DNA of 64,000 nucleotides from Candidatus Polarisedimenticolia bacterium (GCA_035764505.1 DASTZC010000215.1:2402-66401), one strand, 5' to 3'; positions 24,129 through 64,000 are shown, counted from the first letter of the stretch. Numbers and translations are program-made. Notes: generated by a model from the letters alone, not told the origin.

Positions 24129-24156
24129 TTGCAAAGAAGGCGGTTCATCGTATCAT
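24129..24156 (+). promoter_or_regulatory. Candidate sigma70-like promoter (TTGCAA-16-TATCAT) for giant gene 1
   Basis: Hexamers found by eye in an AT-richer patch 212 nt upstream of the ATG at 24368. Confidence 0.3.
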
Positions 24157-35219: not shown

Positions 35220-35432
35220 CGCTTTGCAGGATCAATTCTCCCCCCGTCCAGATCCAGGTCACCAGGAAAGCTGACTCATCCTTCGTGATTCGAGCGTTTA
35301 GCGGCACGTGTCGACGAGCACGGCGGCGAAATGCCCCGTGGCATGGTCATTGCCTTTCTCCCCCACTGCTCTCTGCCTTGCGCAATTGGAAACACCTGGA
35401 TAACCGGTCCGGTGACCGAAGGAGAAAAGGTA

Positions 35433-44954: not shown

Positions 44955-47900
44955 CTAATTGGTGAGATGGTGCGGCACGGTGACGATGACGGTCTTCCGG
45001 GTGCGATTCCCCGCTGCGTCGACGGCTTCGTAAACGAGCGTATAGGTGCGGCCGGGGCCGGAAGCCGAGCGCTCGGCGCGCAGCTGGACTTCCCGGTCAG
45101 GAGTCCCCAGGTCGGCTCCTGAGATGTCCCCCGTGGTGTTTCCGTCGCTGCCTCCCGGCGCATCGTCCGGCTCGGAGCTGCTCGCAGAGAGCAGGGTTAT
45201 CGCAGGCGCCGCAGTACAGGCATCAGAGGACTGCAGGGCCAAGCTCACCGGGACCATTCGGTGATCAGGTTTCCAGAGCACCGAAGGGCTGGCCGCGCCT
45301 TCGAGCCTGGGCGCCACCGTATCGCGAACCGTGACGGCAGCGACGCAAGTGGCGACGTTCCCGGAGCTGTCGGTCGCTTCGAACGTCAGCGCGCTTTCGC
45401 CGATGGGGAAGGTGCCGCTCGCGTCAACACCACCTCCCCTGCTGTTCCGGACGACAACGCCGGCATCACACGCATCGGCTACGGTCGCCATCAGGGAAAC
45501 GACGGCCCCGGCGGGAGAGGAGCATTCGTGCGGACTCGTGCTCGGACAGGCAAGAACCGGCGGGGTCGTATCCTCGACCGTCACGGACAGGGAGGCAACA
45601 TCCGACTCCCCGGCTTCGTCCGTGACCTTGAGTTGCAAATCATGGGTTCCCAACGGAAGCGTGACCTGCAAGGAAGCTCCGGTACCTAGCAAGACCTGAC
45701 CGCCGCTCCCATAGCCGCGGTACCACTCGTAGGAAACAATACCCTCCCCGGCCGACCCGCCGGAATCACTCGAGCCCGAGCCATCGAGCAGGACCGAGGC
45801 TCCCTGCGGACCCTCGCATTCGACACGGGGTGCGGCAAGGGCTCGCGCCGTGGGAGGTGCACTGAAGGCCACGCGCGTCTCTCCCTGGTAGACAAACGGA
45901 ATCATCGCCGAGACCGGCACCGTCGCGCCGTCGGAAATTTCGAGGGTCAAGTGGTACAAGGCGCCCGTCTCGAGCGCCGCGCCCAGTTCCATGGGAGGCG
46001 AAGGCCACGAGTCGAACGGCAGGACCGTGTGGCCGCCAGTGCGTGAGCGCACATGAGCCGAATACTCGTCAAAGCCCGTTAGCATGAACTCGAAACGGAC
46101 GGCCGGGTTGTCGACGCGCCGGATACAGAAATCGAGCGGCAGCGGAAGACCGGCAATCCGCAACATCGCATCGAATGGCCCGACTGGGTCCGAGCAGGTC
46201 CCGGGAGCTATCTCGAAATCGCTCAGCGCATCGGAGCAGCCGAGCGCCGGATCGAGATCAAAAAGGATCGGCTCCCCAAAGCTGATGTTTCCATAGCCGA
46301 TGCCCTCCCCCGCCACGCCGTCGGGAAGCAGCGCTTTTCGGCACCCTTCAGGGTCGATGAAGACGTCGGGAACCGCCTCGTCGACGAAGCTGGCAGGCAC
46401 TACATCGATGTGCCCGGACAGCGGGTCTCCCTGCGGATCGCCGGCCGTCGCGCGCACCCAAAGAGTGCCATCGCCGTTCTGGCGCACGCCGCCGAGGACC
46501 AGCGTGGGTTGACAGGCATCGCCAGAGCCGTCGCTGTTGAAATCCTCCTGGCCGGGATTCGACGTTGACGGACAGTTGTCGCAGGCGTTCCCTAGACCAT
46601 CGGAATCGGTATCCTCCTGCAACGGGTCGGCGGTGGCCGCGCAGAGATCGCAAGCATCACCGATTCCGTCCGCATCACCGTCCGATTGTCCTGGGTTGGC
46701 CAACCCCTGACAGTTGTCGCAGGCGTCGCCGGCCCCATCGCCATCGTCGTCCTGCTGGTCGGCGTTGCCTACCGAGGGGCAGTTGTCCGCCAGCGCGCAG
46801 AGACCGTCCAGGTCCTGATCGTTTTCAGGATCTTGCGGGCAGGCATCGCATGGGTCCCCCAATCCATCCGCGTCTCCATCTTCCTGCGCAGGGTTGTAAA
46901 GAGCCGGGCAATTGTCGAGAGAGCAGACATTGCCGGAGAATCCCGGATCACCATAAAGGTCTTGATCGATGTCGGTACAGAGATCGCATAGGTCGCCGAG
47001 ACCGTCTACGTCGGCATCCTCCTGGCCCGGGTTGTAGTTGAACTGACAGTTGTCGGCACTGTCCCGGACGTCATCCTCGTCGTAGTCGGAGTAGACCTCG
47101 AGCGATGCCGGCACGATCACCCTGGGCCGCAATGGATCATCACTCTCGATCGCCAGGCTGAGCGCACGCGTCCCGACCGGGAGGCCGGTCGAGTCGAAGC
47201 CGACCTCGACCTCCAGCGAACCTCCCGGAGGAATCGTCGCCTGCCGGGGGGAGACGGCAACAAATAAGGGGCGGGTCGACCATCGGCCCATTCCAGTCCC
47301 CAGATCTCCCTGAATGAAATAGATGCCGGCCGACGGCCCCGGAAGCCAGCTCAATGCACCATCTCCAACGTTGAACCAGGGGATGGAAACGGTACGCCAG
47401 AACCCTTGGTCGATGTCGAAGATGTACAGGCTGTTCCCTGAATCTGGCCCATAGGCGCAGTACAGTCGGCCGATCGGATCGATGGCACTGCCGAGGACCG
47501 CTGTGGCGGGGAGTAATGGAAGCTTCCGCCAGGTATTGCTTGCAACCATATACACGCCAAAGCCGGTCCCTCCATTGCCCTGTTGCCCGTAGAGGCGCCC
47601 GTCGAAATAACGTAATCCCCCCCATCGGCCGAACGTGAAGGGAGCGGCCCTAAGGGAAAGCACGGCTCCCGTATCCGGCTCGAAGCGGAAAAGCGCGGTG
47701 CCCAGCGCGAGATAGAGATAGCGAACCCCGTCACTGGCTATGACTCCGGTCCCCGCGCTGACGGGACTGCTACGCTTCGACCAGCTGTCAGTGGCGATGG
47801 TGTAGATGCCCATTTCCGAGTTCCCCGTGTAAACGGTGTAAATCTTCCCTCCCAGGAGGGCCGCCCCCCCGTTATTTCGCGCTGCAATGGGCGAAGGCGC

Positions 47901-50900
47901 CAGCGCCTGCCATGCCCCCGAGGCGGCGTCGTATCGGTAGAACTCATTTCCTTCGTCCTCCTGGCCGTACAGGGTGAGCCGATCCGCATCCTCGGTGACG
48001 CAAGTCAGAGGCTTCGGGCTGGACGGGAGGGGCTCGAATTCACCAAGCGAGAGCTCACCCGTGGAAGCATCCGAAGAGCCGGGGATGACAAGAGCTGTCT
48101 GCGCTTCGGAAGTAGATGCCGCCGCCTGGTGGGCTGGCGGTTCCGGCGAGACGACAACCTGCAGCTGAACGTGCAGGTCGCTGTCTCCCGTGTTCTCCAG
48201 AGTAAGGCGCCTGGTTTCGCGCCGCGCTGAGGGAAGCGCTGCGCTCAAGGACGCGGGGGAGACGGCCAGCACCGGAGGCAAGGACGCGAGGCCTGCCACA
48301 GGGATGGCAATGGACGGCTCGTCAGGATCGTCGGACTGGACCATGAGAGTACCGGTTCTGGTCCCCGTTTCAGTAGGGTCGAAAACCACGTTGACTACGA
48401 GACTGCCTTCCGGCTCCAGTGCATCCGGCGTCCCCAGCCCGGCGTGCGAGATGGTGAAGTCTCCGTCAATCTCGAACCCGATCTGCAGCCGAGCCGTGCC
48501 AGTGTTGCTGACTTTCACCGGCAACGTCTTTGGATATCCAAGAAAGGTGGTGCCGAAATCGAGGGTGGAACGATCGAGCTCGACCGCCGGGACGCCGGTG
48601 ACGGCCATGAGCGCGGGGACGGTGAGAAGCGGCAGCGCCGGATCGTTGCTCAATACACGGATCTCTCCCCGGTACTCACCGGCCGTGAGACGCGACGCGT
48701 CTAAATCGGCGCGTACAGGGACCGAGCTCCCCGCCGGGACGATGCCCGATGAGGGGACCAGCGACACCCACGGAATTGATCCCCGCAGGAATTCGAGCGC
48801 CAGACCATCGTGAAGGTAGGGGGCATTGAAAGCCACCGTCAGGCCGTCGTCCCCTGCCGGGTTCTGGATTCCCACCGTGCAGCCATTGAGGGGACCGCTC
48901 AGGCTCAGGTACTGATAAAGGACGCGCCCGTCCGGATAGAGAATGATCTGGAACGTGAGCGACGTGGAAGCTCTCAGAAGGCTTGCTTCGGTGTACTGGA
49001 CCACGAAGCGTCCGGCGTCGTTCAGGTACCTGACCCTTCCCGGCGAAGCCAGGACGAGATCGTCCCAGAGACCCGCCAGAAGATTGCGGGGAGCGCCCGG
49101 AGTCGGAAGGGGCTGGTTGGTAGGCGCCGATCCCGTGCTCGAGAAGGTGAGGAAGCCGTTGGTGGATACTCTGACCGACTCAAAGGAGTTTCCATAGAAC
49201 GGGAACGAGAAGCCGAGCGGGATAGGCTCACTGAGCTGATCATCGCCGAGGATGGGAATGGGCGTGCCGGAATCCCGGATGTCGGTCCAGGAAAAGGCCG
49301 GCCCGAACCGTGCGTCGGAGTCGCTCCAGCGATAACCGAATCCATCGGGACCTCCGGCGCCCAGGATTCCAGCCCGGGTGTCGGCCTCGTCTTTGCCGAA
49401 TTCCTGCGAGACGTGGGAGGCGACGTTACCCCCCGCCACGGCGAAGCTCGAGGACCAGAGAAGATCGCTGGCCCCGGGGTTTGTCACGGTCAGAATCTGT
49501 GAGGCGGCGGTGCCGGCCGGAACTGACGCTTCCAGGGAACTCGGAGTCACCCGCGCCATCGGTGGGTCCATGCCGACGCCGATCAGCGGAACGATCATCG
49601 CCGGATGCTCTGAATCATTGCTGGCGATCGTGAGGGATCCGGAGCGCGTCCCGGTGAGGGTCGGACGGAACGCGATGTCGAAGGGCCGGGAAGCGCCGCT
49701 TGGAAGCTCCAGGGGAAGCGACAGACCGCTGGTCGAGAAATCCCCCTCGGAGGTCAGGGCGTCGATGCGGAGCGTTCCACTTCCCGCGTTGCGCACGCTC
49801 AAAGGAAGATGGCCCGTATACGGGACGTACGTGGGCCCGAAGTCGAGGGAAGGGGGGGAAACTTCAATCCGCGGAACCCCTGCGACCTCGAGCGTCGCCG
49901 GAACAAGGAGGTTCTGGTGAAAAGGATCGTTGCTCTTCACCACGAGGTCGGCACGATAGGTTCCCTCCGGGAGGCCTTGCGTGCCGAAGCGAGCTTGAAT
50001 CGGCTGCTCGCTGCCGGGGCCTACGGATCCTGAAGTCGGCTCGAGCCTCAAAAAACGGCCACAACCCGATTCCACTTCCAGCGCGATGCCGAGCGGTTGG
50101 TCCAGTCCGGTGGCCAGGTGGTGCACGGCCCCCGTCGCCAAATCCAAGGAAAGCAGATTGGAGAGATATTGCGTCACGAAGGCCTTTTCTCCCAGGGGAT
50201 CCAGGACCACCGAAGCTCCGTAGCGAAAGCCGGGGCCGACGCGACTCACGGCGCGGGTAGCCAGGTCCACCCGGTAGAGCCCACTCTGGAAGTCCATGAC
50301 GTACGCCGTCGTCTCATCCGGACTGAGGGCCACGTCGTAGGCAAGTCCGAAGTTCTCGGCAATGGTCGTGACCATTCCTGTGAAAAGATCAATCCTGGAA
50401 AGCTTCCCGGAGCCGATCCCCGCGCTGATTCCGGTCATATATGCTGCAGTCCCCAGCCGGTTCAGGGCGACCCCCGTGGGCGCAGGAAGGTCCGTCGCCA
50501 CGGGGTGGATTGTCCCGTCGGCCAAGTCGACGGCCATCAGCCGATGGCTATTGAACTCGCCGATGTACGCCACGCCTCGGGCAGCATCCAGGGCGAGGCC
50601 GTACGGCTGCCGCAGTCCGGTGGCGATGAGGGTGATGGCACCTGAGGAGGCGTCGATGGCGGAAAGGGATCCGCTATCGTGGCTCACGACGAGGAGCCTG
50701 TGGGCGGCGCGGTCGAAGACGACGCCTATCGGCGTGTTGAGCCCGCCCGCCAGCGTCACCAAGTCGCCCGTGCCCAGATCGATCGTCCTCAGGTTCCCGG
50801 CTACGAATTCGGTGATGTAGGCGAATTCCGCATCGCACGGCGCCCCGTCGGAAGTCCGCGGAACCACGACCGTAGAGTAATCGAGGCGACCTCTTCCGGT

Positions 50901-53900
50901 GTTCGAGAGCAGCAGGCTCTGGGTCTCTTCCTCTCCCGATCGGAGCACGGCTCCCAGCGCCTCGGGGCGGATGCCGGCTACCGGAGCAGGAACGCCTTGG
51001 CCGGAAAGCGGGATCTCCACGAGCGGCTCGTCCGGATCGTTGCTGGAAAACCTTAAGACCGCCGCGAATCCCCCCTCGTTCTGCGGGTTGAAAGTGATCC
51101 GCACCGGGGCTGACGCGCCCGGCGCCAGCTCCAGAGAGCTCGACGAAGACAAGAACTCCGCGCCGGTGGAGGCTATCGAAAAGACCTGCAACGGCTCGGT
51201 ACCGCGGTTCTTGACGGTCAGGCCGAGCGTCCTGCGGGCGCCAACGATGACGTCGTGGAAGTCGAGCCGATCGGCCGGATCCCGCTCGCCCCCGAACTGC
51301 AGCCTTGCGGTGTGGGAGTTCTCAAAGCAAACGCCGACGGACGGAGCGTTTCTTATTTCGACCTCGATGTTCCCATCCGCCGCCAGCGCGGCCAGGAAAT
51401 CGGGGTCGAGCCGGAAGGTTCGCGTGCCGTCGGCGGCGCAGTCCCTGCCGGTCGGGCCCACCGTGCCGAGCAGCGTCCCCTCGGCGAAGACGCTCGCCTC
51501 TTCGGGCAGGTAGCCGAAGTCTCCCTCGACCGTGACGAAGAGCCTGCCCTCCCCGTTCGGATGCACCGGAACCGGGAACGAGTGGGTGGTCACGGCCCCC
51601 GCGTCGAAGAAGGTCTTCTTGGACTGGAGCTCCAAAAGCTCCCCGAAAATGTCCAGATCCGGCCCGTCGCTCACCGTCATGACCGCCGGCACCGCAGTTA
51701 CGGGGGCGACGGGATCGTTGGTCCGGATCTCCACCACCCCTGGATAGGTCCCGGCCCTCGCGCCCGAGGCGTCGAAGCGAACCTGCACATTCTCCGCCCC
51801 GCCCGGCGGAATCGACCCTGAGCGCGGGGCCGTGTCCAGCCAATTCGGCGCGCGGCCCTCGGCATAGCGGATTATGTTGGCGAGCAGCCCGCGGGCCGGA
51901 TGGTCGTGCTCATAGAAGAACTCGAGAGAGGCGCCCACCGCGATGACGATGCCTGATCCGAAGCGGTATTCGACCAGGTTTATTCGGCCGTTCCCGTCCC
52001 GGAGGAGCGGCCGCGCCCCTGGAGGGATCGAGCTGAAAACCGATTGTCCCTCGTCGACACCAGAAAAAAAGCCGGGAATCCCGACCAGCATCGGATGGAG
52101 CGGATCCAGGACGAAGTTCCCGACGCTTTCCGCAAATTCGATTCCCATGCCTCCCGGAAGCTGGACGATCGCGGGAGATCCCAATGCATATCCCCATCCC
52201 GCGGCATGGAACTCCAGGGTTCCTCCACGATCCACGAAGTCATTCAACCGCTCCATCTGGGAGGCGAGCGCGTCGTAGAACGCATCGGATTGATCGCTGG
52301 CAACGAGGACCATCCGATAGCGATCGAGGTCCGTCGTCGCAAGCTGCTCCCCCAGGATCATGTCGTAGAGGATTCCGTTGCTTTCGAGCACGGTTTGGTT
52401 CGAGAAGGTCTTCCATGGATTGCTGCTTTGCACGAGCAGGACGCTCGGCCGGGCGGATGCGGGCGTGGCAGGCTCGACCGACGTCGCCTGTGCATCGTCA
52501 CCTGTTGCATCGACCGGAAGGCTGTCGGATCGGGGGAACACCTCGAAATCGAGGACGCCCTCGCCGGTGTTGCGGATCGTGACGTTTTGTACGGCTGCCG
52601 CCCCCGTGAGGAGGGTCTGCGAGACCGAGAGCGGCAAGATTCCAGCCCGGGCCTCGGCCAGGCCGACCCCTTGAAGCGCAATGGCGAGCTCCGGCGTGTC
52701 CGGATCATCGCTGCGGATTGAAAGCGTCGCTGCCCTCGGACCCGGCGATCCGGGAAGAAATGTAATCGACAGATCCTTCCGCTCGCGCGGCGCGAGCGTG
52801 AATGCCTCGCCGGGGGCCCTGAATTCCGGATTGTCGATCTCGATCGCGTGGATATTCAGCCGCTCGGTGCCGTTGTTCCTGAGCGTCACGACCCTGGGCA
52901 CTGACCGTCCGATCAGCAGGGATCCAAAATCAACCGAGACCCGTGAGGCAGTCAGATCCGGCTTGCCGCTCAGGCCCAGGTGCACCGCGACCTTCGGTCG
53001 AGGACGGGAGGGGTCATTGGTGTGAAACACGATCTCGGCGTCGTACTCTCCCGCCGGGACACCCTGGGGATCGAGCCTGACTGCCAGGTCGAGGCTCCCC
53101 CCGGGCGGTACGAGTCCGGTGGTCGGCCTCACGGACAGCCAGGGGACGGTATTGCGGCTGAACAGCAGGGCATTGCGCAGGAGTCTCGGCATGTCTCCCG
53201 ACCAGTACCCTGACCCGAAATAAGCGTTGACCGCCACGACCTGATGCGAGTTGGCCACCGCGAAAGGCATCCCGTCCGCCCAACCGGCGATCCATTCCGC
53301 CCCGGGTGCCAGGGCGATGCCGGCCAGGTATGCCGAAGCCGTGGCGACCCCGTCCATGATCGGGTGCGACGCGTCCCAGTCCTTCAGGGCAGAAGGTCCG
53401 GTCACCCCGCCACGGCCGACCACCGGCACATAGCCTTCCGATAGCAGCCGTCCTGTAACCTCCCATCCGGGCACGAAAGCGGCGCTCGACAGGACGACCC
53501 CACCGCCCGCGTCGACGTAATCCGCCAGCACGTCCCCGACGCCTTCCGGATCCAACATGAGCAGATTGATGGCGACCAGAACGGCATCGTATTGCGAGAG
53601 CTTCTCAAGGCTGGGCGCCACGTCCGCGATATCGATCACGTCCACGACGCCGAATTCCGGAAACTGCCTCAGGCTGGCCTGGATTTCCGAAACATCGACC
53701 TGGCTCTGGAGTATGGCGATGCGCACGGTTCCCGAGGCAACCGAGGAATCGGAGAGCAGCCCGGATCTCGTCGGCACGTGCAATGGTGGACCAAGTTCCG
53801 CCTCGTAAGGCCCGCTTGCCGGGGGCGCGGGCGGTTCCAGCGCCGCCATCTCGCTCCAGGAGCCGGCAAGAATCCCCTGCGGCGCGCTGGGAACTTTGGC

Positions 53901-55718
53901 TCCCGTCATCTCCAGGTCGAACCGGAGGTCGTTGACCCCTGAGTTGTGCACCGTCACGAGCTCGGTGGCCGAGCCTTCCGAGTCAAGGGCCTTGCTGATT
54001 GAATCCTGAGAGACCTCGAATGCAGGCGGTCCCCCCGTCCGTCCACTGGTTACGTTCGAGAGCGCTCCGACATTTCCCGATTCATCCCTGGCCTTCACCG
54101 CGACGTAGTACAGCGTGTCGAAGGCGAGACCTTCGACGACAACCTGCTCCAGAGAGCCAGGCGGAACCGGCCTCGAGGGGCCGGATGCGCGCCGGGCAGC
54201 GGCGAAATTGGCGGTGTCGATCGGATCTGTCGAGTAGCGGACGTCGTAGGAGCTCACGGTTCCCGATTCGCCGTCGTCTCCGGTGGCCGTCCAGTTCAAT
54301 GTCAGGCTGGTCCCCGTGGATAAAGTGGTTCGCAGGTCCAGGACCGTTCCGGGTGCCGTGGAGTCCTTGGTCCCCAGAGGACGGCGGGCATTCAGCCTGC
54401 CACCCTTCGAGACCTTCGTGGCGAGCGCCGCGATCGGGTCGACCGAGGAGAGCAACCTTGCTTTGAGATCGGCAAGACCGAGGTCGGGATCCACCGCCCG
54501 GACGAGCGCCGCGACTCCCGCCACGTGAGGCGTCGCCATCGAGGTGCCGCTCGCGAGGCCGTACTTACCCCCGGGCAGCGTGCTCAGGATGTCCACGCCT
54601 GGCGCGGCCAGATGCACGGTGCTGGGCCCGTAGTTGGAGAAGGCAGCGAGACGATCTTCGGAGTCGGTGGCCGCCACCGTGATGATGCCTTCCGAGGCAT
54701 AACTCGCGGGGTATTGTGGATGGATGTCGGTGTTGACACCGTCGTTTCCGGCGGCGGCGACGAAGAGGATTCCGCCCTCCGCCGCCGCGTTGATGGCGTC
54801 AAGCAGCGTCTGGGAGAAGCCCCCACCGCCCCAGGAATTGCTCAGGACGTCGGCGCCCATCGACTTGGCATATTCCACCGCGCGGACCGCGTCTGAATCT
54901 GTACCCGAGCCTCCGCTGCCCAGGAACTTGAGGGCCATCAGGCTCACGTGCCAGTTCACCCCAACCACTCCCAGAGAGTTGTCTCCGATCGCTCCGATCG
55001 TCCCGGCGACGTGGGTGCCATGGAAGTTGTCGTCCATGGGATCGCCGTCATCGTTGGCGAAGTCATAGCCGTGCACATCGTCGACGTAGCCGTTGTTGTC
55101 GTCATCGAGGCCGTTGCCGGCGATCTCCCCCGGGTTCGTCCAGATGTTCGCCGCCAGATCGGGATGGGTGTAGTCGATGCCGGTGTCGATGACGGCCACG
55201 ACGACCCTCCGATCGCCCGTCGTGATGTTCCAGGCCGATTCAGCGTCGATGTCGGCGCCGGGCGTTCCCCCGGTCTGCCCGGTGTTGTGGAGGCCGTAGA
55301 GCGCCGGGTAACGAGGATCGTCAGGGACGAGGTCCACATGGACCAAGTAGTTGGGCTCGGCATAGCGGATGTGGTGATTCCCGCGCAGCCGCTCCAGCGC
55401 CGCTTCCGTGCTGACGCCCTTGCCGAGCTTCCAGTGCTCCGCGCCGGTCTGGAAGGTCCTCAAACGGCTCCCCGCCACCTGGGCGCGGACATTGGCCTTC
55501 TCCGAAGGGCCTGTCTCGCGGTTGAACTTGACGAGAATTTCACCGGGGGCGTGGGGAGCGAGTGGTGGGGTGCCGTTCCCCTTCCCAGGTGGGGAGGGGG
55601 AAGCAAGGATGAGGATCAGGCTCCCGAAAGCGAGAAACAGGAGAGAGAAGGTCGACAGCTCACGGAAGCGCCTGGATCGTCGCGGTGACATGAGTATTCC
55701 ATGACCGACCGGTGCCAT
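44955..55718 (-). CDS. Giant secreted multidomain protein 2 (about 3580 aa): signal peptide, I9 propeptide, subtilisin S8, FN3-like, two ThuA/class-I-GATase-like modules, many Ig-like (ASH/choice-of-anchor-like) modules, NHL propeller, NIDO-like, Kelch-like, TSP3 array, PKD/HYR domains, and a conserved C-terminal module
   Basis: Probable start at MSPRRSRRFRELSTFSLLFLAFGSLILILA (55691). S8 triad VAVIDTGID / HGTHVAG / GTSMATPHVAG. TSP3 repeats DNCPALYNPAQEDGDADGLGDPCDAC... NIDO-like IPLGFSFPFYGNSFESVRVSTNGFLTF. HYR-like ...CSSPAGAVVSLMATVADACD... Confidence 0.85.
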   Translation of the reverse strand: MAPVGHGILMSPRRSRRFRELSTFSLLFLAFGSLILILASPSPPGKGNGTPPLAPHAPGEILVKFNRETGPSEKANVRAQVAGSRLRTFQTGAEHWKLGKGVSTEAALERLRGNHHIRYAEPNYLVHVDLVPDDPRYPALYGLHNTGQTGGTPGADIDAESAWNITTGDRRVVVAVIDTGIDYTHPDLAANIWTNPGEIAGNGLDDDNNGYVDDVHGYDFANDDGDPMDDNFHGTHVAGTIGAIGDNSLGVVGVNWHVSLMALKFLGSGGSGTDSDAVRAVEYAKSMGADVLSNSWGGGGFSQTLLDAINAAAEGGILFVAAAGNDGVNTDIHPQYPASYASEGIITVAATDSEDRLAAFSNYGPSTVHLAAPGVDILSTLPGGKYGLASGTSMATPHVAGVAALVRAVDPDLGLADLKARLLSSVDPIAALATKVSKGGRLNARRPLGTKDSTAPGTVLDLRTTLSTGTSLTLNWTATGDDGESGTVSSYDVRYSTDPIDTANFAAARRASGPSRPVPPGSLEQVVVEGLAFDTLYYVAVKARDESGNVGALSNVTSGRTGGPPAFEVSQDSISKALDSEGSATELVTVHNSGVNDLRFDLEMTGAKVPSAPQGILAGSWSEMAALEPPAPPASGPYEAELGPPLHVPTRSGLLSDSSVASGTVRIAILQSQVDVSEIQASLRQFPEFGVVDVIDIADVAPSLEKLSQYDAVLVAINLLMLDPEGVGDVLADYVDAGGGVVLSSAAFVPGWEVTGRLLSEGYVPVVGRGGVTGPSALKDWDASHPIMDGVATASAYLAGIALAPGAEWIAGWADGMPFAVANSHQVVAVNAYFGSGYWSGDMPRLLRNALLFSRNTVPWLSVRPTTGLVPPGGSLDLAVRLDPQGVPAGEYDAEIVFHTNDPSRPRPKVAVHLGLSGKPDLTASRVSVDFGSLLIGRSVPRVVTLRNNGTERLNIHAIEIDNPEFRAPGEAFTLAPRERKDLSITFLPGSPGPRAATLSIRSDDPDTPELAIALQGVGLAEARAGILPLSVSQTLLTGAAAVQNVTIRNTGEGVLDFEVFPRSDSLPVDATGDDAQATSVEPATPASARPSVLLVQSSNPWKTFSNQTVLESNGILYDMILGEQLATTDLDRYRMVLVASDQSDAFYDALASQMERLNDFVDRGGTLEFHAAGWGYALGSPAIVQLPGGMGIEFAESVGNFVLDPLHPMLVGIPGFFSGVDEGQSVFSSIPPGARPLLRDGNGRINLVEYRFGSGIVIAVGASLEFFYEHDHPARGLLANIIRYAEGRAPNWLDTAPRSGSIPPGGAENVQVRFDASGARAGTYPGVVEIRTNDPVAPVTAVPAVMTVSDGPDLDIFGELLELQSKKTFFDAGAVTTHSFPVPVHPNGEGRLFVTVEGDFGYLPEEASVFAEGTLLGTVGPTGRDCAADGTRTFRLDPDFLAALAADGNIEVEIRNAPSVGVCFENSHTARLQFGGERDPADRLDFHDVIVGARRTLGLTVKNRGTEPLQVFSIASTGAEFLSSSSSLELAPGASAPVRITFNPQNEGGFAAVLRFSSNDPDEPLVEIPLSGQGVPAPVAGIRPEALGAVLRSGEEETQSLLLSNTGRGRLDYSTVVVPRTSDGAPCDAEFAYITEFVAGNLRTIDLGTGDLVTLAGGLNTPIGVVFDRAAHRLLVVSHDSGSLSAIDASSGAITLIATGLRQPYGLALDAARGVAYIGEFNSHRLMAVDLADGTIHPVATDLPAPTGVALNRLGTAAYMTGISAGIGSGKLSRIDLFTGMVTTIAENFGLAYDVALSPDETTAYVMDFQSGLYRVDLATRAVSRVGPGFRYGASVVLDPLGEKAFVTQYLSNLLSLDLATGAVHHLATGLDQPLGIALEVESGCGRFLRLEPTSGSVGPGSEQPIQARFGTQGLPEGTYRADLVVKSNDPFHQNLLVPATLEVAGVPRIEVSPPSLDFGPTYVPYTGHLPLSVRNAGSGTLRIDALTSEGDFSTSGLSLPLELPSGASRPFDIAFRPTLTGTRSGSLTIASNDSEHPAMIVPLIGVGMDPPMARVTPSSLEASVPAGTAASQILTVTNPGASDLLWSSSFAVAGGNVASHVSQEFGKDEADTRAGILGAGGPDGFGYRWSDSDARFGPAFSWTDIRDSGTPIPILGDDQLSEPIPLGFSFPFYGNSFESVRVSTNGFLTFSSTGSAPTNQPLPTPGAPRNLLAGLWDDLVLASPGRVRYLNDAGRFVVQYTEASLLRASTSLTFQIILYPDGRVLYQYLSLSGPLNGCTVGIQNPAGDDGLTVAFNAPYLHDGLALEFLRGSIPWVSLVPSSGIVPAGSSVPVRADLDASRLTAGEYRGEIRVLSNDPALPLLTVPALMAVTGVPAVELDRSTLDFGTTFLGYPKTLPVKVSNTGTARLQIGFEIDGDFTISHAGLGTPDALEPEGSLVVNVVFDPTETGTRTGTLMVQSDDPDEPSIAIPVAGLASLPPVLAVSPASLSAALPSARRETRRLTLENTGDSDLHVQLQVVVSPEPPAHQAAASTSEAQTALVIPGSSDASTGELSLGEFEPLPSSPKPLTCVTEDADRLTLYGQEDEGNEFYRYDAASGAWQALAPSPIAARNNGGAALLGGKIYTVYTGNSEMGIYTIATDSWSKRSSPVSAGTGVIASDGVRYLYLALGTALFRFEPDTGAVLSLRAAPFTFGRWGGLRYFDGRLYGQQGNGGTGFGVYMVASNTWRKLPLLPATAVLGSAIDPIGRLYCAYGPDSGNSLYIFDIDQGFWRTVSIPWFNVGDGALSWLPGPSAGIYFIQGDLGTGMGRWSTRPLFVAVSPRQATIPPGGSLEVEVGFDSTGLPVGTRALSLAIESDDPLRPRVIVPASLEVYSDYDEDDVRDSADNCQFNYNPGQEDADVDGLGDLCDLCTDIDQDLYGDPGFSGNVCSLDNCPALYNPAQEDGDADGLGDPCDACPQDPENDQDLDGLCALADNCPSVGNADQQDDDGDGAGDACDNCQGLANPGQSDGDADGIGDACDLCAATADPLQEDTDSDGLGNACDNCPSTSNPGQEDFNSDGSGDACQPTLVLGGVRQNGDGTLWVRATAGDPQGDPLSGHIDVVPASFVDEAVPDVFIDPEGCRKALLPDGVAGEGIGYGNISFGEPILFDLDPALGCSDALSDFEIAPGTCSDPVGPFDAMLRIAGLPLPLDFCIRRVDNPAVRFEFMLTGFDEYSAHVRSRTGGHTVLPFDSWPSPPMELGAALETGALYHLTLEISDGATVPVSAMIPFVYQGETRVAFSAPPTARALAAPRVECEGPQGASVLLDGSGSSDSGGSAGEGIVSYEWYRGYGSGGQVLLGTGASLQVTLPLGTHDLQLKVTDEAGESDVASLSVTVEDTTPPVLACPSTSPHECSSPAGAVVSLMATVADACDAGVVVRNSRGGGVDASGTFPIGESALTFEATDSSGNVATCVAAVTVRDTVAPRLEGAASPSVLWKPDHRMVPVSLALQSSDACTAAPAITLLSASSSEPDDAPGGSDGNTTGDISGADLGTPDREVQLRAERSASGPGRTYTLVYEAVDAAGNRTRKTVIVTVPHHLTN

Positions 55719-56013: not shown

Positions 56014-59000
56014 TTATGGACATCCTCCGGTGCACGAGGCGGGCTCGCGCGGCAGCGGCGCGGTGTCGGAGCCGTAGCCGCCGCGCGTGCCGTCGGTGGC
56101 GCGCACCTGCATCACGTAGAAGTAGACGTGACCCACCGGAGGCGCGACGTCGGCCGCCGGCGCTTCATGATGATCGAGCGCCGTCGTCCCGGCGGCGAGC
56201 ACCGTCACGCTCCCCAGCGACAGCAGGTTCGGCATCCTGGCGATGCGCGAAAGATCGCCGCGGATCAGGTCGTACCCCGAGGCCCCCTGCACCCCTCCCC
56301 AGGTGATGTGCGCCTTGCCGGAGCCGCCGTCGGGATCGACGCGCAGCTGGAGCGGATCGGCGCTCCCCATATCGTGCGGCACGGCCACGCTGACGGTGTT
56401 GCGCGTGACGTTTCCGGCGGCGTCCCGCGCCTCGTAGACCAGCGAGTAGATCCGCCCGGTTCCGTTGCCCAGCCGCTCGGCACGCAGCGATACCTGCGTG
56501 TCGGCGGTTCCCGGCTCGGTGCCGGTGATGTCCCCGGTCGTCTCACCGTCGTCGTCCCCCGGCGCGTCATCCGGCTCGGAGCTGCTCGACGAGAGGAGCG
56601 CGATGGGCGGCGCCGCGGTGCACAGATCCGAGGCCTGCAGCGCCACGCCCACCGGTACCATCCGGTGGTTCGGGCTCCAGAGAAGCACTGGGGTGGCGGC
56701 CGTCTCGAAAGCCGGCGCGACGGTATCGCGCACCGTCACCTTCGTGGAGCAGGTAGCGACATTTCCGGAGGCATCGGTTGCGGTGAAGGTCACGGTGGTC
56801 TGGCCCAGCGGATAGACGCCGGAAGCGTCTGCCCCGCCGCCGCGGCTGTTGTGGATGGAGGCCGCACCGCTGCAGACATCGGGAGCGCTGGCCACCATGG
56901 CGGTGGGGCTCCCCGCCGGCGACGAGCATTCGAGGACCCTGTCGGGCGGACAGACGAGCGCCGGCACGACCGGGTCCGTTACGCTCGCAGTGAAGGAGAC
57001 GACACTCCACTCTCCGGACTGGTCGGTCGTCTTGAGCTGGAGCGTCTGGCTGCCGACAGGAAGGGTCAGAAGGAGCGTCCGTCCGGTTCCCAGCAGAGCC
57101 TGTCCTGCCGCCCCGTAGTTCCGGTACCACTCGTAGGAGCGGATGTCGTCCACCGTCCCGGGCGAGGAATCGGGATCGCTCGCGCCCGAGCCATCCAGCA
57201 GGACCGTTCCCCCCTGGGGACCGGAGCACACTCCGGGAGCCGCTGTGGCGCTCGCCACCGGCGGATTGTTCACCGTCAGGCGCGACTCCCCCTGGTAGGT
57301 GAAGGGCAGGGTGCGTCGGACCGGGACGCTCGTTCCGTCGCTGACTTCCACCGTGAGGTTGTACTGCACGCCGGCCTCCAGATCCGCTCCGAGATCGAGG
57401 TTGTGCGGCGGCCAGGCGCTGAAGGGAACGGTGGCCAGGGCGGAGGTGTGCGAGCGCAGGTGCGCCGAGTGCAGGTCGTACGACATGACCCTCAGCTCGA
57501 ACTGCACCGATGGATTGTCGATGCGTCGCACGCACAGATCCAGCGGCATCGTATAGCCGCTGAGCTGCAGGAAATACTCGAAGCCGGCTTGCGGGGAGCC
57601 GCAGGTGCCCGGCGCCATCTCATAGTCGATCGCGCCGTCTTCGCAGGCGAGCACCGCATCGAGGTCGAAGAGAATCGGCTCGCCCAGGCTGCCGTTGCCG
57701 AAGCCGATCCCCTTGCCCGGGATCCCTTCCAGCAGCAGGGCGCTCTGGCAGCCGTTCGGGTCGTCGAACGCGTCCGGAAGCGTCCGATCCACGAAGGCCG
57801 CCGGAATCAGATCGACGTGGCCGGCGAGGGCATCGCGCTGCGGGTCGGAGGCGATGGCGCGCACGAATATGGTGCCGCTGCCGTCCTGATGGATGCCGTT
57901 GAGGGTCAGCACCGGCTGGCAGGCATCGCCCGAGCCGTCCGCATCGGAATCCTCCTGGCCCGGGTTGTAGCTGGAGGGGCAATTGTCGCAGACGTTCCCC
58001 AGATGGTCGGCATCGCTGTCGATCTGGAGCGGGTCGGCGGTCGCCGGACAGAGATCGCAGGCATCCCCGACCCGGTCTCCATCGACGTCAGCCTGCGTGG
58101 GATTGGCAATGTTCAGGCAGTTGTCGCAGGCATCCCCTGTCCCGTCGGCATCGCCATCGGCCTGATTGGGGTTCGGGGCCGTCGGACAATTGTCCGCGCC
58201 GGCGCACAGTCCATCGTGGTCGGCGTCGTTGAACGGGTCGGACGGACAGATGTCGCAGACGTCGCCGACCTGGTCGGCGTCGGCATCCTCCTGGAGCGGG
58301 TTGTAGATCGCGGGGCAGTTGTCGGGATCGCAGGTATTGGCCGGGAAGCCTGGATCGCCCGACCGATCGTGGTCGACATCGGTGCAGCTGTCACAGACAT
58401 CGCCAATCTGATCGGCGTCGGCGTCCTCCTGGCCCGGGTTGTAGGTGCGCGGGCAGTTGTCGAACGGGTCTCCCAGACCGTCGCCGTCCGAATCGGTGAA
58501 GACGGAGAGGTTCGCCGGAACATTGAACAGGGGCTTCGCGGGGTCGTTGCTCGTGATGGCAAGGTTTGCCTGGTACTCCCCGGCGGGCAGCAGTCCGGCG
58601 TCGAAGGTGACCGCCAGGTTGAGCGAGGCGCCGGCCGGTATCGTCCCATGGTTGGGACTGGCGGACACGAACGAAGCGAAGGTCACCAGCCGCGCGATGC
58701 CGGTTCCCCCCTCCCCTTGAACGAAATAGATGCCGGGGACCGGCCCGGGCAGCCATCCCATGCCGCCGTCGTTCACGGAGAAGAACGGGATGGAATTAAC
58801 CGTCCAGCGGCGGGTGTCGAGGTTGAAGCGGTAGAGATTCCGCTGGAAATAGGAGCCGTAGGTGATGTACTCGCGCCCCACCGGATCGATGGCGCTCCCG
58901 AGGACCGCCCCCGAAGGCAGCGCCGGAAGCAGGGTCCAGGAGTTCCCGGCGATGTCGTAGACCGCGAAATTGATGCCGCCGTTCCCCTGGTGCCCGTAGA

Positions 59001-62000
59001 GGCTCCCGTTGAAGTAGCGCATCCCGCCCCAGCGCTCGAAGACGAAGGGCGCCGAGCGCAGGAAGGTTATGGCGCCGGTGGCGGGCTCGAAGCGCACCAG
59101 CGTGGTGCCGGAGAGAATGTAAAGGTAGCGCGTCCCATCGCTCGCGATGATCCCCGTCCCGCTTCCGGCCGGACTGGCCCGCGTCGTCCAGCTGTTGCCG
59201 GCAATGGAGTAGATGCCCATCTGCGTCGATCCCGTGTAGACGGTGTAGATCTTGCCTGACAGCAGCGCGGCGCCGCCGTTGTTTCCCGAATTGATGGGCG
59301 ATGAGGCGAGCCCCTCGAAGGAGTTGGTCCCGGCGTTGTAGCGGCCGAAGCCGGTGCCTTCGTCCTGCTGTCCGTAGAGGCTGAGCGAGACAGGATCCTC
59401 CACGACGCAGGTCAGCGGATAGGGGCTCGGAGCGAGGCTCTCGAAATCGCCCGGCCTTCCGTCCACCTGCGCTGGATCGGTGGGGGGTGCGAAGGGCGGT
59501 ATCGGATTGCTGGAGGAGCCGGGACCGGTCGCCGAGAGTCCGAGGAAAGGCGATCTCGTCGCGGAGGCGCTGACGGCGGTGGATTGCAGGTCGAAGCTGA
59601 GATCACTGCCGCCGGTATTCCGCAGGGTCAGGGCGCGAGTCTCGGTCCCGCCCATGGGAAGCACCGAATGCAGGGACGCCGGCGACACTTCGAGAACAGG
59701 GGGTATCAGCGCCGAGCCGCTCAGCGGCACGACCACCGTCCCCTCGTCGGGATCGTCGCTCGTCAGGGTCAGCGTCCCGGTGTGTGGCCCGTCTGCCGTG
59801 GGGTGGAAGACGACGTCGGCGATCACCGTGCCGCCGATCGGGATGATCCTGGGAGTGCCGAGCGATATCGAGAACTCGCCGCTGGTCGTGGCGCCCGTAA
59901 TCGTGAGGGCGTCGGTGCCCAGGCTGCGGATCGTCAGGGGCAGCGTGCTGGTGAAGCCCGTGAAGGTCGGCGGGAAATCCAGGCTTGCGGGAGCGACGTC
60001 GATGTCGGGCGCGCCGATGACCCGCAGGGAGGCGGGGACTTCGGCATCGGCGCGGGCGGGGTCGTTGGTGTGGATCCTCACCTTGGCCGTGTACAGGCCT
60101 CCCAGGAGACGGCCGGAATCGAAGCCCGCCTCGATGGCCTGAGCGCCCCCCGGAGGGATGGAGCCCGAGGAAGGACTCACCGTCAGGAAGGCAGGAGGGG
60201 TGAGGAACCGCGCGAATCCGACTCCTTGCTCTCCCTGTACGAAATAGATGCCGGGCACGGGCCCGGCGAGCCAGCCCATTCCGCCGTCGCCGACGGGGAA
60301 AAAGGGAATGGTGAACAGGTTCCAGCTCCCGGTCGCCACATCGAACCGGTAGAAGTTTCTGCCTCCGTAGCTTCCGTAGGCGAAGTACTGCCGCGCGAAA
60401 GGATCGATCGTGGCGCCCAGGACCACGCCTCCCGGTGCGGCGGGCATCAGCGTCCAGGTGTTGCTGGCGATGTCGTAGCGTGCGAAGTGCGCTCCCCCGT
60501 TTCCTTCATGACCGAAAAGCTTGCCTTCCAGATAGCGCAGGCCGCCGAACGCCTGGAAATAGAAAGGCGGCGGCGCCAGCGCGGTGACCGCCCCGGTATG
60601 CGGCTCGAAGCGGAGCAGAGTCGACCCAAGGGCTAGATAGAGAGACAGGTTGCCATCGGAAGCGATGTTCCCGGTATCGCGCAAGGGGCTGGGCCGCAAG
60701 ATCCAGGTGTCGGATGCGATGTCGTAGACCCCCATCTGGGGCCAACCTGTATAGACGGTGTAGATCCTGCCGTTCAGCAGCGCCGCTCCGCCGTTGTTCT
60801 GCGAGTGGATCGGCGAAGTCGCCAGCTGCTCCCAGACATTCTCGGAGGAGAGGTACCGATAGAAGCGGTACCCCTGGTTTTCCTGCGCGTAGAGGATGCC
60901 GGTCGCGGGATCCTCCACCACGCAGGTCAGAGGCACGGGGCTGGACGAGAGCTGCTCGAACTCGCCCGGCAGCCCTTCGGCTCCGGGCACGGTCTGCGGC
61001 ACGTACGGCAGCGGAGCGTTGTTGGAGGTGGTGGGATCGCCGGCATCGGGTCCCAGGAAGGGACTGGTGATGGATCCGGCCGTGGCCCAGGAGATGTCCA
61101 GGAGGTAGTCGAGCGCGCTTCCCCCCGTGTTGGACAGGTTGAGGATCTGCGTCTCGCGCTGGCCTGACAGGAGGGTGGAGCTCAGCGACGTCGGCGACAC
61201 GCCCAGAATCGGTGGATCGGCGCCGAGACCCGACAGTGGGATCACGACGGTCGATTCGTCCGGATCGTCCGACTCGAGGGTGAAGCTCCCCGTCCTCGGC
61301 CCCAGCGCCGCAGGGTGGAACTCCACGTTCAGGGTGACGCTCGCGCCGATGGCAAGGGCGGCCGGAACGCTGATTCCGGACACCGAGAAGTCGCCGGCGG
61401 CGGCAAGGCCGGTGACGTGCAGCACGTCGGTGCCCGCATTCTTCAGAGTCACGGCCAGAGTGCGCGGGTAGCCGATGAAAGTCTGTCCGAAATCGAGGTT
61501 GGCCGGGGTGATCTCCACGTCAGGAACGCCGATGACCGTCATCGTCGTCGGCACGGACAGACTCGGAGCGGCTGGATCGTTGCTCAGGATGCGTATCTCG
61601 GCGGGATAGACCCCTCCCAGCATCCCGGCGGCATCCATATCGGCGGTGATCTGCGTCGAGCCACCGGCCGGGATCGTGCCGAATTCCGGGGTCATCGAGA
61701 GCCAGCGCGGCCGAGTCGAGAGATCCACGGCGAGATTATCGTGGAGGTAAAGCGTATTGAAGGCCACGGTCAGGCCGTCGCTCCCGGTCGCATTCTGGAT
61801 TCCCACCGTGCAGCTGTTGGCCGAGCCGATGAGCCGGTAGTACTGATAGGTGATGCGCCCCGAGGGATACAGGATGATCTGGAAGGTCAGGGAAGCGCTG
61901 CTATCCACATAGAGGGCGATGCCGGTGTACTGGATCACGAAGCGGCTGGGATCGCTCGCGTATCGCACGTTGCCCAGGGAGTTCACATAGAGGTCGTCCC

Positions 62001-64000
62001 AGAGGGCCGCGAGGAGGTTCTCCGGAGCGCCGGTACTGGGCAGCGGCTGATTGGTGTAGGAGGCGCTGCCGCTGGTGAACGACAGGAAGCCGTTGGTGGA
62101 CACCCGCACCGAGGTGAACTCGTTGCCGTAGTAGGGAAACGCGAATCCCAAAGGAATCGGCGAGCTGGTCGTGTCGTCGCCGGAAATCGGGACGATGGTC
62201 CCCGTATCGCGTATGTCCGTCCAATCGAAGCGCGGCCCCCTGGGATCGTCGGAATCCTTCCAGCGATAGCCGAATAGGTCCGGCCCGCCGCTGCCGCGGA
62301 TTCCGGGACGCGGGTCCGTCGCCAGCTTGGGATAATCCTGACCCGGATGCACGGTGACGCTGCTGCCGGTTACCTCGAGGAGATCGGAGGTCCAGACCAG
62401 GTCACTGCCTCCCGTGTTGGACAAGGTGAGGGTGCGGGAAGTTCGCGCCCCCGTGAACAGCGTCGCCGACAAGGATGCCGGGTCCGCGCCGGCCACCGGG
62501 GGAATGACCCCGGTCCCGCTCAGAGGCACCGCCAGGACCGCATGGTCGGGATCGTCGCTGGCGATCGAGAGCTCGCCGGTCCGCGGGCCCGGAACGGTCG
62601 GGCGGAACGTCACCTGGTAGGTCTGGCTGGCGCCGGGAGCAAGCGTCGTTGGGATTGCCGGGCCGCTGACGGAGAAATCTCCGGTCGCAGAGATTGCCGA
62701 CAGGTGCAGGAGATCGGTCCCGACGTTGCGAAGGACCACCGGCAGCGTCAGCGGGTAGGGCACGAAGGTCGGGCTGAAGGCCAATGAGTCGGGCTGGGCT
62801 CCGATGCGCGGCACCCCGATGACGGTCAGCGTCGTCGGCACCGTGAGCTCGGAATGGAACGGGTCGTTGCTGCGAACCAGCAGGTCGGCGTGATAAGTGC
62901 CTCCGAGCAGCGTCCCCGGGTCGAAGTTGGCATGCAGCTCCTGCGAGCCTCCGGCGGGCACGGAGCCGGAGGGCGGATCCACCGTCAGGTACTCCCCGAA
63001 GCAGCCGGTCTCAGTGGAGAGCGACACCCCCACCGGGCCGCTCAGGCCGGTGGCGATCGGCTGGATGGTGCCGGCAGGCAGGGCGAGCGCCAGGAGCTGT
63101 CCCCCGTAGTAGCTCGGGAAGAATGCTTTCTGGTTCAGCGGATCGAGCACGATGCCGGACGGGCTGTTCAGGGAGGAGGCGACCGTTCTCACGGCATGGC
63201 TCGCCAGGTCGACGGCCAGGACCGTTCCGTCGAAATTGGCCACGTACGCGGTCGAGACCGAGCCGTCCAGGGTCACATCGTAGGGACGCCCCATGCCTCC
63301 GGCAATCGCCGTCACAACTCCCGTGGCGACGTCGACCCTCGACAGCTCCGAGCTGTCGGCTTCCAATACGTAGGCTTCGGTCCCCGAGGAATTCAACGCG
63401 ATGCCGGTGGGCCGGCTCAAGCCGGTGGCCACCACCCGCACCGCACCGGTCGCCAGATCGATCGATTCGAGCCTGCCGCTGTCCAGCTCGCCCGTATACG
63501 CGAGGCCGCGGCTGAAATCCACGGCCAGCCCGAAAGGAAAGACGAGCCCCGACGCGATTCGAGTGATGGCGCCCGTTTGCGCGTTGACCGCCGACAGGGT
63601 CCCGGGATCGCGCTCGATGACCAGGGCACGATCCCCCTGGCGATCGAAAACCACGCCGATGGGCGTGAGCAAACTGGCGATCCTGGTGGCGACCCCGGTG
63701 GCCAGGCTCACCTTCACGACACGCCCGCCGGTGAACTCGGTCACGTAGGCGACATCGGCCTGGCACACCGCCCCATCCGAAGCGCGCGGGATGACCAGGT
63801 TGGAGAAGTCGAGCGGACTGCCGCCGCTGTTCGTGAGGAACAGGCTCTGCGTCTGTCGGCTGCCGGTCAGCAGGGTGGCGGTCAGCGATCCGGGCGTGAT
63901 GGCCGCCACGGGAGGCGGCAGCCCGGCCCCGGTCAATGGGATCGTCACGGAGGAACGGTCGGGATCGTTGCTGTCGATTCTCAGATCCCGGCTGAACCCA
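56014..64000 (-). CDS. Giant secreted multidomain protein 3 (partial, more than 2660 aa; N-terminus beyond the window end), a paralog of giant 2 with the same module order (Ig-like/NHL/NIDO-like/Kelch-like/TSP3/PKD-HYR/C-terminal module)
   Basis: The frame stays open to position 64000. The first residues in the window align to the middle of giant 2 (…TGRGRLDYSTVVVPRTSDGAPCDAEFAYITEF vs …SGGSPLDFSNLVIPRASDGAVCQADVAYVTEF). TSP3 array at about 57920-58510. Confidence 0.8.
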   Translation of the reverse strand, partial: GFSRDLRIDSNDPDRSSVTIPLTGAGLPPPVAAITPGSLTATLLTGSRQTQSLFLTNSGGSPLDFSNLVIPRASDGAVCQADVAYVTEFTGGRVVKVSLATGVATRIASLLTPIGVVFDRQGDRALVIERDPGTLSAVNAQTGAITRIASGLVFPFGLAVDFSRGLAYTGELDSGRLESIDLATGAVRVVATGLSRPTGIALNSSGTEAYVLEADSSELSRVDVATGVVTAIAGGMGRPYDVTLDGSVSTAYVANFDGTVLAVDLASHAVRTVASSLNSPSGIVLDPLNQKAFFPSYYGGQLLALALPAGTIQPIATGLSGPVGVSLSTETGCFGEYLTVDPPSGSVPAGGSQELHANFDPGTLLGGTYHADLLVRSNDPFHSELTVPTTLTVIGVPRIGAQPDSLAFSPTFVPYPLTLPVVLRNVGTDLLHLSAISATGDFSVSGPAIPTTLAPGASQTYQVTFRPTVPGPRTGELSIASDDPDHAVLAVPLSGTGVIPPVAGADPASLSATLFTGARTSRTLTLSNTGGSDLVWTSDLLEVTGSSVTVHPGQDYPKLATDPRPGIRGSGGPDLFGYRWKDSDDPRGPRFDWTDIRDTGTIVPISGDDTTSSPIPLGFAFPYYGNEFTSVRVSTNGFLSFTSGSASYTNQPLPSTGAPENLLAALWDDLYVNSLGNVRYASDPSRFVIQYTGIALYVDSSASLTFQIILYPSGRITYQYYRLIGSANSCTVGIQNATGSDGLTVAFNTLYLHDNLAVDLSTRPRWLSMTPEFGTIPAGGSTQITADMDAAGMLGGVYPAEIRILSNDPAAPSLSVPTTMTVIGVPDVEITPANLDFGQTFIGYPRTLAVTLKNAGTDVLHVTGLAAAGDFSVSGISVPAALAIGASVTLNVEFHPAALGPRTGSFTLESDDPDESTVVIPLSGLGADPPILGVSPTSLSSTLLSGQRETQILNLSNTGGSALDYLLDISWATAGSITSPFLGPDAGDPTTSNNAPLPYVPQTVPGAEGLPGEFEQLSSSPVPLTCVVEDPATGILYAQENQGYRFYRYLSSENVWEQLATSPIHSQNNGGAALLNGRIYTVYTGWPQMGVYDIASDTWILRPSPLRDTGNIASDGNLSLYLALGSTLLRFEPHTGAVTALAPPPFYFQAFGGLRYLEGKLFGHEGNGGAHFARYDIASNTWTLMPAAPGGVVLGATIDPFARQYFAYGSYGGRNFYRFDVATGSWNLFTIPFFPVGDGGMGWLAGPVPGIYFVQGEQGVGFARFLTPPAFLTVSPSSGSIPPGGAQAIEAGFDSGRLLGGLYTAKVRIHTNDPARADAEVPASLRVIGAPDIDVAPASLDFPPTFTGFTSTLPLTIRSLGTDALTITGATTSGEFSISLGTPRIIPIGGTVIADVVFHPTADGPHTGTLTLTSDDPDEGTVVVPLSGSALIPPVLEVSPASLHSVLPMGGTETRALTLRNTGGSDLSFDLQSTAVSASATRSPFLGLSATGPGSSSNPIPPFAPPTDPAQVDGRPGDFESLAPSPYPLTCVVEDPVSLSLYGQQDEGTGFGRYNAGTNSFEGLASSPINSGNNGGAALLSGKIYTVYTGSTQMGIYSIAGNSWTTRASPAGSGTGIIASDGTRYLYILSGTTLVRFEPATGAITFLRSAPFVFERWGGMRYFNGSLYGHQGNGGINFAVYDIAGNSWTLLPALPSGAVLGSAIDPVGREYITYGSYFQRNLYRFNLDTRRWTVNSIPFFSVNDGGMGWLPGPVPGIYFVQGEGGTGIARLVTFASFVSASPNHGTIPAGASLNLAVTFDAGLLPAGEYQANLAITSNDPAKPLFNVPANLSVFTDSDGDGLGDPFDNCPRTYNPGQEDADADQIGDVCDSCTDVDHDRSGDPGFPANTCDPDNCPAIYNPLQEDADADQVGDVCDICPSDPFNDADHDGLCAGADNCPTAPNPNQADGDADGTGDACDNCLNIANPTQADVDGDRVGDACDLCPATADPLQIDSDADHLGNVCDNCPSSYNPGQEDSDADGSGDACQPVLTLNGIHQDGSGTIFVRAIASDPQRDALAGHVDLIPAAFVDRTLPDAFDDPNGCQSALLLEGIPGKGIGFGNGSLGEPILFDLDAVLACEDGAIDYEMAPGTCGSPQAGFEYFLQLSGYTMPLDLCVRRIDNPSVQFELRVMSYDLHSAHLRSHTSALATVPFSAWPPHNLDLGADLEAGVQYNLTVEVSDGTSVPVRRTLPFTYQGESRLTVNNPPVASATAAPGVCSGPQGGTVLLDGSGASDPDSSPGTVDDIRSYEWYRNYGAAGQALLGTGRTLLLTLPVGSQTLQLKTTDQSGEWSVVSFTASVTDPVVPALVCPPDRVLECSSPAGSPTAMVASAPDVCSGAASIHNSRGGGADASGVYPLGQTTVTFTATDASGNVATCSTKVTVRDTVAPAFETAATPVLLWSPNHRMVPVGVALQASDLCTAAPPIALLSSSSSEPDDAPGDDDGETTGDITGTEPGTADTQVSLRAERLGNGTGRIYSLVYEARDAAGNVTRNTVSVAVPHDMGSADPLQLRVDPDGGSGKAHITWGGVQGASGYDLIRGDLSRIARMPNLLSLGSVTVLAAGTTALDHHEAPAADVAPPVGHVYFYVMQVRATDGTRGGYGSDTAPLPREPASCTGGCP

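Follow-up and report, generated by a model that had tools for sequence, protein, structure and literature searches.

A NIDO-like module in two giant proteins of a Polarisedimenticolia bacterium and its predicted nesting in split immunoglobulin-like domains

Introduction

Does a domain familiar from the extracellular matrix of animals have relatives in bacteria and, if so, in what kind of protein and to what end? The question is raised by a 64,000-nucleotide stretch of DNA from Candidatus Polarisedimenticolia bacterium (GCA_035764505.1, DASTZC010000215.1:2402-66401; hereafter the window), where an initial annotation reported a domain resembling NIDO (Pfam PF06119) in two giant proteins, here called giants A and B, and considered both the lineage and the context to be unusual for this fold. 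The animal domain itself has been described, in a study of SNED1, as lacking a clear function and a structure (10.1101/2020.07.27.223107).

The module in the two giants probably belongs, in our judgment, to the NIDO superfamily as one of its bacterial members; it would be all-beta, lie inside a split immunoglobulin-like (Ig) domain, and serve as a non-catalytic binding unit on an exported protein with an Ig stalk. Its presence in a bacterium is ordinary; the new and less expected point is the nesting.

One module in each of two giant proteins

Each of the two giant open reading frames (ORFs) encodes a single module of about 200 residues, copy A in giant A and copy B in giant B, and both lie on the minus strand (Table 1). 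A plus-strand reading of 48895-49345 and 61849-62283 was rejected, the translation being meaningless and the genes running on the other strand. In the correct frame the translation of giant A reads GFGYRWSDSD...FSWTDIRDSGT...GDD...IPLGFSFPFYGNSFESVRVSTNGFLTF...GLWDDL...FQIILYPDGR, with a paralogous string in giant B, and the motifs quoted in the initial annotation are thus present in both; what the copies have in common is GYRW..DSD...GP.F.WTDIRD.GT..PI.GDD..S.PIPLGF.FP.YGN.F.SVRVSTNGFL.F...LWDDL...FQIILYP.GR. The GYRW motif begins at nucleotide 49337 in copy A and 62271 in copy B, and FQIILYP occupies 48933-48953 and 61864-61884, respectively. The two copies are 65% identical across 203 residues (E 3e-92), and neither tblastn nor a hidden Markov model (HMM) scan of all window ORFs found a third.

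The ranges first assigned to the domain (48895-49345 and 61849-62283) do cover its core, but fall short of its full extent, N-terminally by about 16 residues and C-terminally by about 40-48, where a further motif, ..QY..VGIQN..GL.., is found. The module goes far beyond chance because hundreds of homologues exist; conserved positions are D53, N80-G81, W111, D113 and G176. An AlphaFold2 (AF2) model of copy A is confident (predicted local distance difference test, pLDDT, 90.4; predicted template modelling score, pTM, 0.89) and all-beta, with 13 strands.

The module interrupts an Ig domain

In homologues, the stretch immediately ahead of the module corresponds to no more than the first part of Ig-type models, and the stretch that directly follows it to the second half only. 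The module was therefore removed in silico, and the joined flanks were scored against the HYDIN Ig model PF22544 (cutoff 25.5 bits, 100 positions). Taken singly, the halves score low (Table 1), and the N-terminal flank of copy B gave no HYDIN Ig match at all. Once spliced, the flanks of copy A match as one stretch at 27.8 bits (profile 14-91 of 100) and those of copy B at 32.4 bits (profile 15-90 of 100), both above the cutoff. Since splicing restores a contiguous Ig match, the module is predicted to sit in a loop of a split Ig domain of the HYDIN/ASH type, and the profile coordinates place the insertion between positions ~37 and ~49.

The arrangement recurs along giant A, which carries five cassettes of a split Ig with a nested payload (aa 564-2877; window 47088-54029, minus strand), alternating with complete Ig domains. 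Removal of the four other inserts likewise restores contiguous Ig matches, three of them to HYDIN Ig (38.2, 30.6 and 37.6 bits) and one to BACON_2 (26.1 bits).

A very large bacterial family

Of the 20 bacterial and metagenomic proteins found when the database was queried with copy B, most already have a precomputed PF06119 call; a profile search added 40 further homologues. We also scanned one genome per bacterial and archaeal species, using an alignment of eight sequences, and obtained at least 590 confirmed module loci in many phyla. The best 76 of these are nearly all from metagenome-assembled genomes (MAGs), are at most 58% identical to the window copies, and come from Acidobacteriota (including Polarisedimenticolia), Eisenbacteria, Krumholzibacteriota, Zixibacteria, Latescibacterota, Calditrichota, Bacteroidota, Fibrobacteres, Delongbacteria and others; among the matches listed, the nearest relatives of the domain are in MAGs of Acidobacteriota and Eisenbacteria (up to 58% identity).

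An exhaustive HMMER search over 1.84 billion cluster representatives (clusters at 50% identity) matched 39,734 at E<=1e-3, 23,508 at E<=1e-10 and 6,294 at E<=1e-30, the counts at weaker E-values being inflated because the search profile took in some flanking Ig columns. The top 150 representatives are giant proteins (median 2011 aa), mostly with two or three module copies and with up to 14. The module is likewise usually multi-copy in the genomes, with 178 instances in the best 76 loci of about 6.5 kb; the giants of the window have one each within the window.

Nesting appears to be the rule in this family, as judged from domain matches. A C-terminal Ig half follows the module in 176 of the 178 instances in the best 76 loci, and both halves are found in 158; among the top 150 representatives the corresponding figures are 72% and 48%, which are lower bounds because the half-Ig HMMs were derived from this window only.

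Given a family so large, spread across phyla and already tagged by Pfam NIDO, the occurrence in a bacterium cannot be called an unusual lineage or context, and on this point the initial annotation did not hold. The literature we searched nowhere describes bacterial NIDO domains: databases already tag them, papers do not describe them.

A probable binding role

Giant A begins with a signal-peptide-like N-terminus, basic and then hydrophobic, followed in order by a fervidolysin-type prodomain, an S8 subtilase domain, fn3, the five split-Ig cassettes with their complete Ig neighbors, TSP3, PKD and HYR; because of this N-terminus, the prodomain and protease, and the fn3, Ig-stalk, TSP3, PKD and HYR domains, the protein is most likely exported. 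Neither giant matches Por_Secre_tail or CHU_C in Pfam, i.e., neither has the C-terminal tail of type IX secretion system (T9SS) substrates. Some homologues outside the window, by contrast, have a T9SS tail, PEP-CTERM, a dockerin or a FlgD-Ig domain at their end.

We propose that the giants would be exported as extended multi-tools, either secreted or held at the cell surface, in which the Ig domains would build a long stalk and the nested modules, the NIDO-like one included, would project from its sides as payloads, some for binding and some enzymatic. In this picture the NIDO-like module would be a non-catalytic, adhesive unit that keeps a ligand, probably a glycan or a matrix polymer, close to the remainder of the protein. 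A binding role is proposed because the module is often present in several copies; because a relative, discussed below, occupies the distal end of a gliding adhesin; because its loose structural neighbors are accessory sandwich domains of carbohydrate-active enzymes; and because no catalytic family matches it in Pfam or NCBIfam, the NCBIfam scan having returned no model matching the module. The conserved residues listed above may form a ligand site or a calcium site.

That second possibility leads to a different reading, in which the module is purely structural, for instance a spacer stabilised by calcium or a knob for oligomerisation, and would determine the shape or self-association of the giant while engaging no external ligand. 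The conserved Asp pairs (GDD, WDD) are potential calcium ligands, the giants also bear calcium-binding TSP3 repeats, and the N-terminal NIDO-containing fragment of SNED1 is a possible dimer. We nevertheless consider a purely structural role unlikely, as a spacer would be oddly placed if mounted on the side of a stalk domain; the remaining payloads, propellers and enzyme-like domains, are of types that usually engage ligands; and in the adhesin RemA/RemZ the related module forms the distal, N-terminal end. Slimmer still are the chances that the module is itself an enzyme, acting for instance on a glycan or a peptide, with the conserved acidic and amide residues as an active site working alongside the N-terminal subtilase; it is in part the missing match to any catalytic family that made us prefer a binding unit.

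Homology to the animal NIDO domain

The Pfam NIDO model has 186 positions and a gathering threshold of 25 bits. Scanned alone, the segment of copy B scores 29.7 bits (E 8e-7) and so passes, whereas copy A reaches 19.4 bits (E 1e-3) and does not; in whole-protein scans NIDO appears for giant B alone and at 21.7 bits, again under the threshold. The HMMER match of both copies is confined to profile positions 2-58 or 2-63, and neither gave a full-length match to the model. When bacterial homologues were rescanned, 10 of 10 scored above the threshold (26-42 bits), and in two of these the match reaches profile 2-115.

A human nidogen-1 sequence, which served as a lead for fetching database fragments of real nidogen-1 and nidogen-2 and as nothing more, scores 204.5 bits against Pfam NIDO (residues 73-267 on profile 2-186). 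When 31 trimmed bacterial domains, with copy A as the first row, were compared by hhalign with five database nidogen N-termini, the two profiles aligned with 96.6% probability (E 5.2e-10) over 106 columns and about 25% identity, in a stretch that begins at the GDD loop, takes in FYG, VxxTNG and WDDL/LADLD, and ends at TFQxxL; in greedy mode the alignment extends co-linearly to the domain end, at low confidence. In the reciprocal direction, an HMM built from 409 bacterial instances and no animal sequences scores real nidogen N-termini at 38-41 bits. The homology first suggested for this locus is thus borne out by Pfam (for copy B alone), by hhalign and by the reciprocal HMM. The FxFPFYG stretch, part of what had been singled out as the hallmark of the domain, lies upstream of the Pfam model, because the model begins at the VxVSTNG strand; it does have a nidogen counterpart, GDDFVSPALELSGALRFYDR..., aligned by hhalign.

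A search of the PDB found no NIDO structure. The AF2 model of the real nidogen-1 N-terminus (17-row alignment) was poor, with a pLDDT of 50.4, and was excluded from the fold search; its better-predicted stretch runs strand, helix, strand, strand, strand, which is the bacterial strand order, and the helix coincides exactly with a 24-residue nidogen insertion placed by hhalign.

Could the resemblance be a short motif (FYG...VSTNG...SF) arrived at by chance or convergence on an unrelated beta fold? The partial HMMER coverage and the scores of copy A and of copy B within the full-length protein under the gathering threshold would allow it. We find this very improbable and reject it, since the profile-profile alignment pairs WDDL with LADLD and TFQ with TFQ far past the motif, the bacterial HMM recognizes nidogens, two homologues extend to profile 115, and the order of secondary structure agrees in the better-predicted part of nidogen, helix and insertion included. 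Comparison of sequence profiles therefore leaves the homology of the bacterial module to the NIDO core well supported and its equivalence over the full length of the domain putative. Although the literature describes NIDO from animals only, recent horizontal transfer from an animal, or a contaminated or chimeric window, is the least credible explanation of all and was rejected, given the confirmed loci in species-representative genomes of many bacterial phyla, the thousands of 50%-identity clusters, the purely bacterial architecture on a 66% GC chromosome segment with housekeeping genes, and the low identity to nidogen.

What the family may mean

A bacterial family so large and so widespread prompts one to ask whether this animal matrix domain had its origin in bacteria. 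Animal NIDO could have branched off from an ancient and very large family of bacterial payload modules, mounted sideways on the Ig-stalk loops of giant surface proteins; we put this forward tentatively, as a possibility that we would not favor at present. If it were true, the compact, helix-free and confidently modelled bacterial members would for the first time make the NIDO fold and its ligand tractable, and the split-Ig cassette would represent a general and hitherto undescribed means by which bacteria build modular giant arrays of adhesins and enzymes. Human genes for deafness and cancer carry mutations in NIDO. For a domain with neither structure nor assigned function that is mutated in disease, a compact bacterial relative modelled at pLDDT 90 therefore offers a practical handle on the fold.

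The split-Ig cassette also explains why standard scans give half-Ig matches only on either side of such modules, and should improve the annotation of giant proteins of uncultured Acidobacteriota and of the Fibrobacteres-Chlorobi-Bacteroidetes (FCB) group. At the level of databases, NIDO in a bacterium is no surprise, and these findings alone open no long-standing question.

The giants and their genomic neighborhood

Giant B is paralogous to giant A over the latter's C-terminal two thirds, and its own N-terminus lies beyond the window edge; a GTG at 63948 is not the real start, because the frame is open to base 64000 (63949-64000: ..GFSRDLRIDSNDPDRSSVTIPLTG..). At the other end, giant B has a C-terminal extension absent from giant A. 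Runs of TSP3 are found in both (aa 2990-3150 in A, aa ~1830-2000 in B), followed by some 150-250 unassigned residues and then by PKD and HYR. Third-position GC (GC3) is 0.758 in giant A (44955-55718) and 0.844 in giant B (56014-63948).

A third giant ORF (23975-33715, plus strand; 3246 aa, GC3 0.90) has nearly no Pfam match except TSP3 at about aa 2115-2150, and the HMM scan of window ORFs found no NIDO-like module in it. The window as a whole is ordinary bacterial chromosome with a GC content of 66%, and encodes RNase E/G, Dus, the E2 and E3 components of a 2-oxoacid dehydrogenase, and menaquinone synthesis by the futalosine pathway. Three genes, those of the Kelch-repeat protein, the TonB-receptor-like protein and the amidase (Table 1), are found between the giant genes, and together with the giants they may constitute a surface or nutrient-acquisition gene cluster.

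Table 1. Position of the modules, their host domains, the payload cassettes and neighboring genes in the window.
Feature	Position	Strand	Residues	Basis
NIDO-like module, copy A	48777..49385	-	giant A aa 2112-2314	HMM envelope
NIDO-like module, copy B	61705..62316	-	listed ORF B aa 545-748	HMM envelope
Split Ig, N-half hosting copy A	49428..49565	-	aa 2052-2097	half-Ig HMM; alone 12.2 bits, profile 14-37
Split Ig, C-half hosting copy A	48594..48782	-	aa 2313-2375	half-Ig HMM; alone 13.1 bits, profile 49-91
Split Ig, N-half hosting copy B	62365..62502	-	aa 483-528	half-Ig HMM and splice test
Split Ig, C-half hosting copy B	61528..61716	-	aa 745-807	half-Ig HMM; alone 18.6 bits
ThuA/GATase-like payload cassette	52965-54029	-	giant A aa 564-918	cassette map
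Second GATase-like payload cassette	51663-52652	-	giant A aa 1023-1352	cassette map
NHL/SGL-type propeller payload cassette	49878-50987	-	giant A aa 1578-1947	cassette map
NIDO-like payload cassette		-	giant A aa 2052-2375	cassette map
Kelch-type propeller payload cassette	47088-48278	-	giant A aa 2481-2877	cassette map
Giant A	44955..55718	-	3587 aa	translation, Pfam, cassette map
Giant B	56014..64000	-	at least 2644 aa	translation, Pfam; N-terminus beyond window edge
Kelch-repeat protein	35331-39110	+	1259 aa	
CarboxypepD_reg/Plug/TonB-dependent-receptor-like outer-membrane protein	39262-42996	-	1244 aa	
Amidase	43114-44832	-		

Comparison with known systems

Among known systems, the Ig domains of the HYDIN/ASH/BACON type (PF22544, PF15780, PF19190) correspond to the host of the module: the spliced flanks match them end to end, and complete copies alternate with split ones in the giants. 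Unlike ordinary members, the split domains of the window are interrupted after about strand C by an insert of 200-370 residues; it is because a whole domain interrupts the Ig that ordinary scans see half-Ig matches only. One homologue carries the NCBI name "choice-of-anchor D." The supersandwich (galactose-mutarotase-like) beta domains of glycoside phosphorylases, polysaccharide lyases, copper amine oxidases and the P1 domain of YidC are also among the closest known systems.

A distant relative of the module, as far as profile similarity indicates, is the N-terminus of the gliding adhesin RemA/RemZ of Flavobacterium johnsoniae (8gl6 chain D), of which residues 51-191 match the family profile at 61.5 bits (E 7e-16), with the DD loop at one end of the alignment and the GI..N motif at the other; a Pfam NIDO scan of this stretch alone did not detect it. 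Like the giants, RemA/RemZ has many beta domains, and it is a large adhesin of the cell surface; its module region is more diverged and forms the extreme N-terminus instead of interrupting an Ig domain. The 8gl6 entry provides no structure for this relative, because cryo-electron microscopy resolves the C-terminal domain only. RemA-family proteins are T9SS substrates, whereas giants A and B lack the corresponding tail.

A further comparison is with the animal NIDO domain (PF06119, SMART SM00539) of nidogen-1 and nidogen-2, SNED1, alpha-tectorin, mucin-4, Drosophila Mesh and Caenorhabditis elegans DEX-1. The bacterial and animal forms share the homologous core, i.e., the GDD loop, FYG, VxxNG, the (W/L)xDLD strand and TFQxxL; both are mostly beta, and both are found in a multidomain extracellular context, which for the giants is a predicted one. 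The bacterial form adds an N-terminal segment (GGPD-FGYRW-DSD...W-DI), lacks the helix-containing insertion of about 24 residues and other loops of nidogen, is often present in several copies, and is matched by HMMER over the first third of the Pfam model only. It is also nested in a split Ig, whereas the animal domain stands at the protein N-terminus or beside AMOP, vWD and EGF domains. With these differences in place, the module is best classed as one that works like, and is related to, animal NIDO, forming a bacterial branch of the NIDO superfamily that is already within reach of Pfam.
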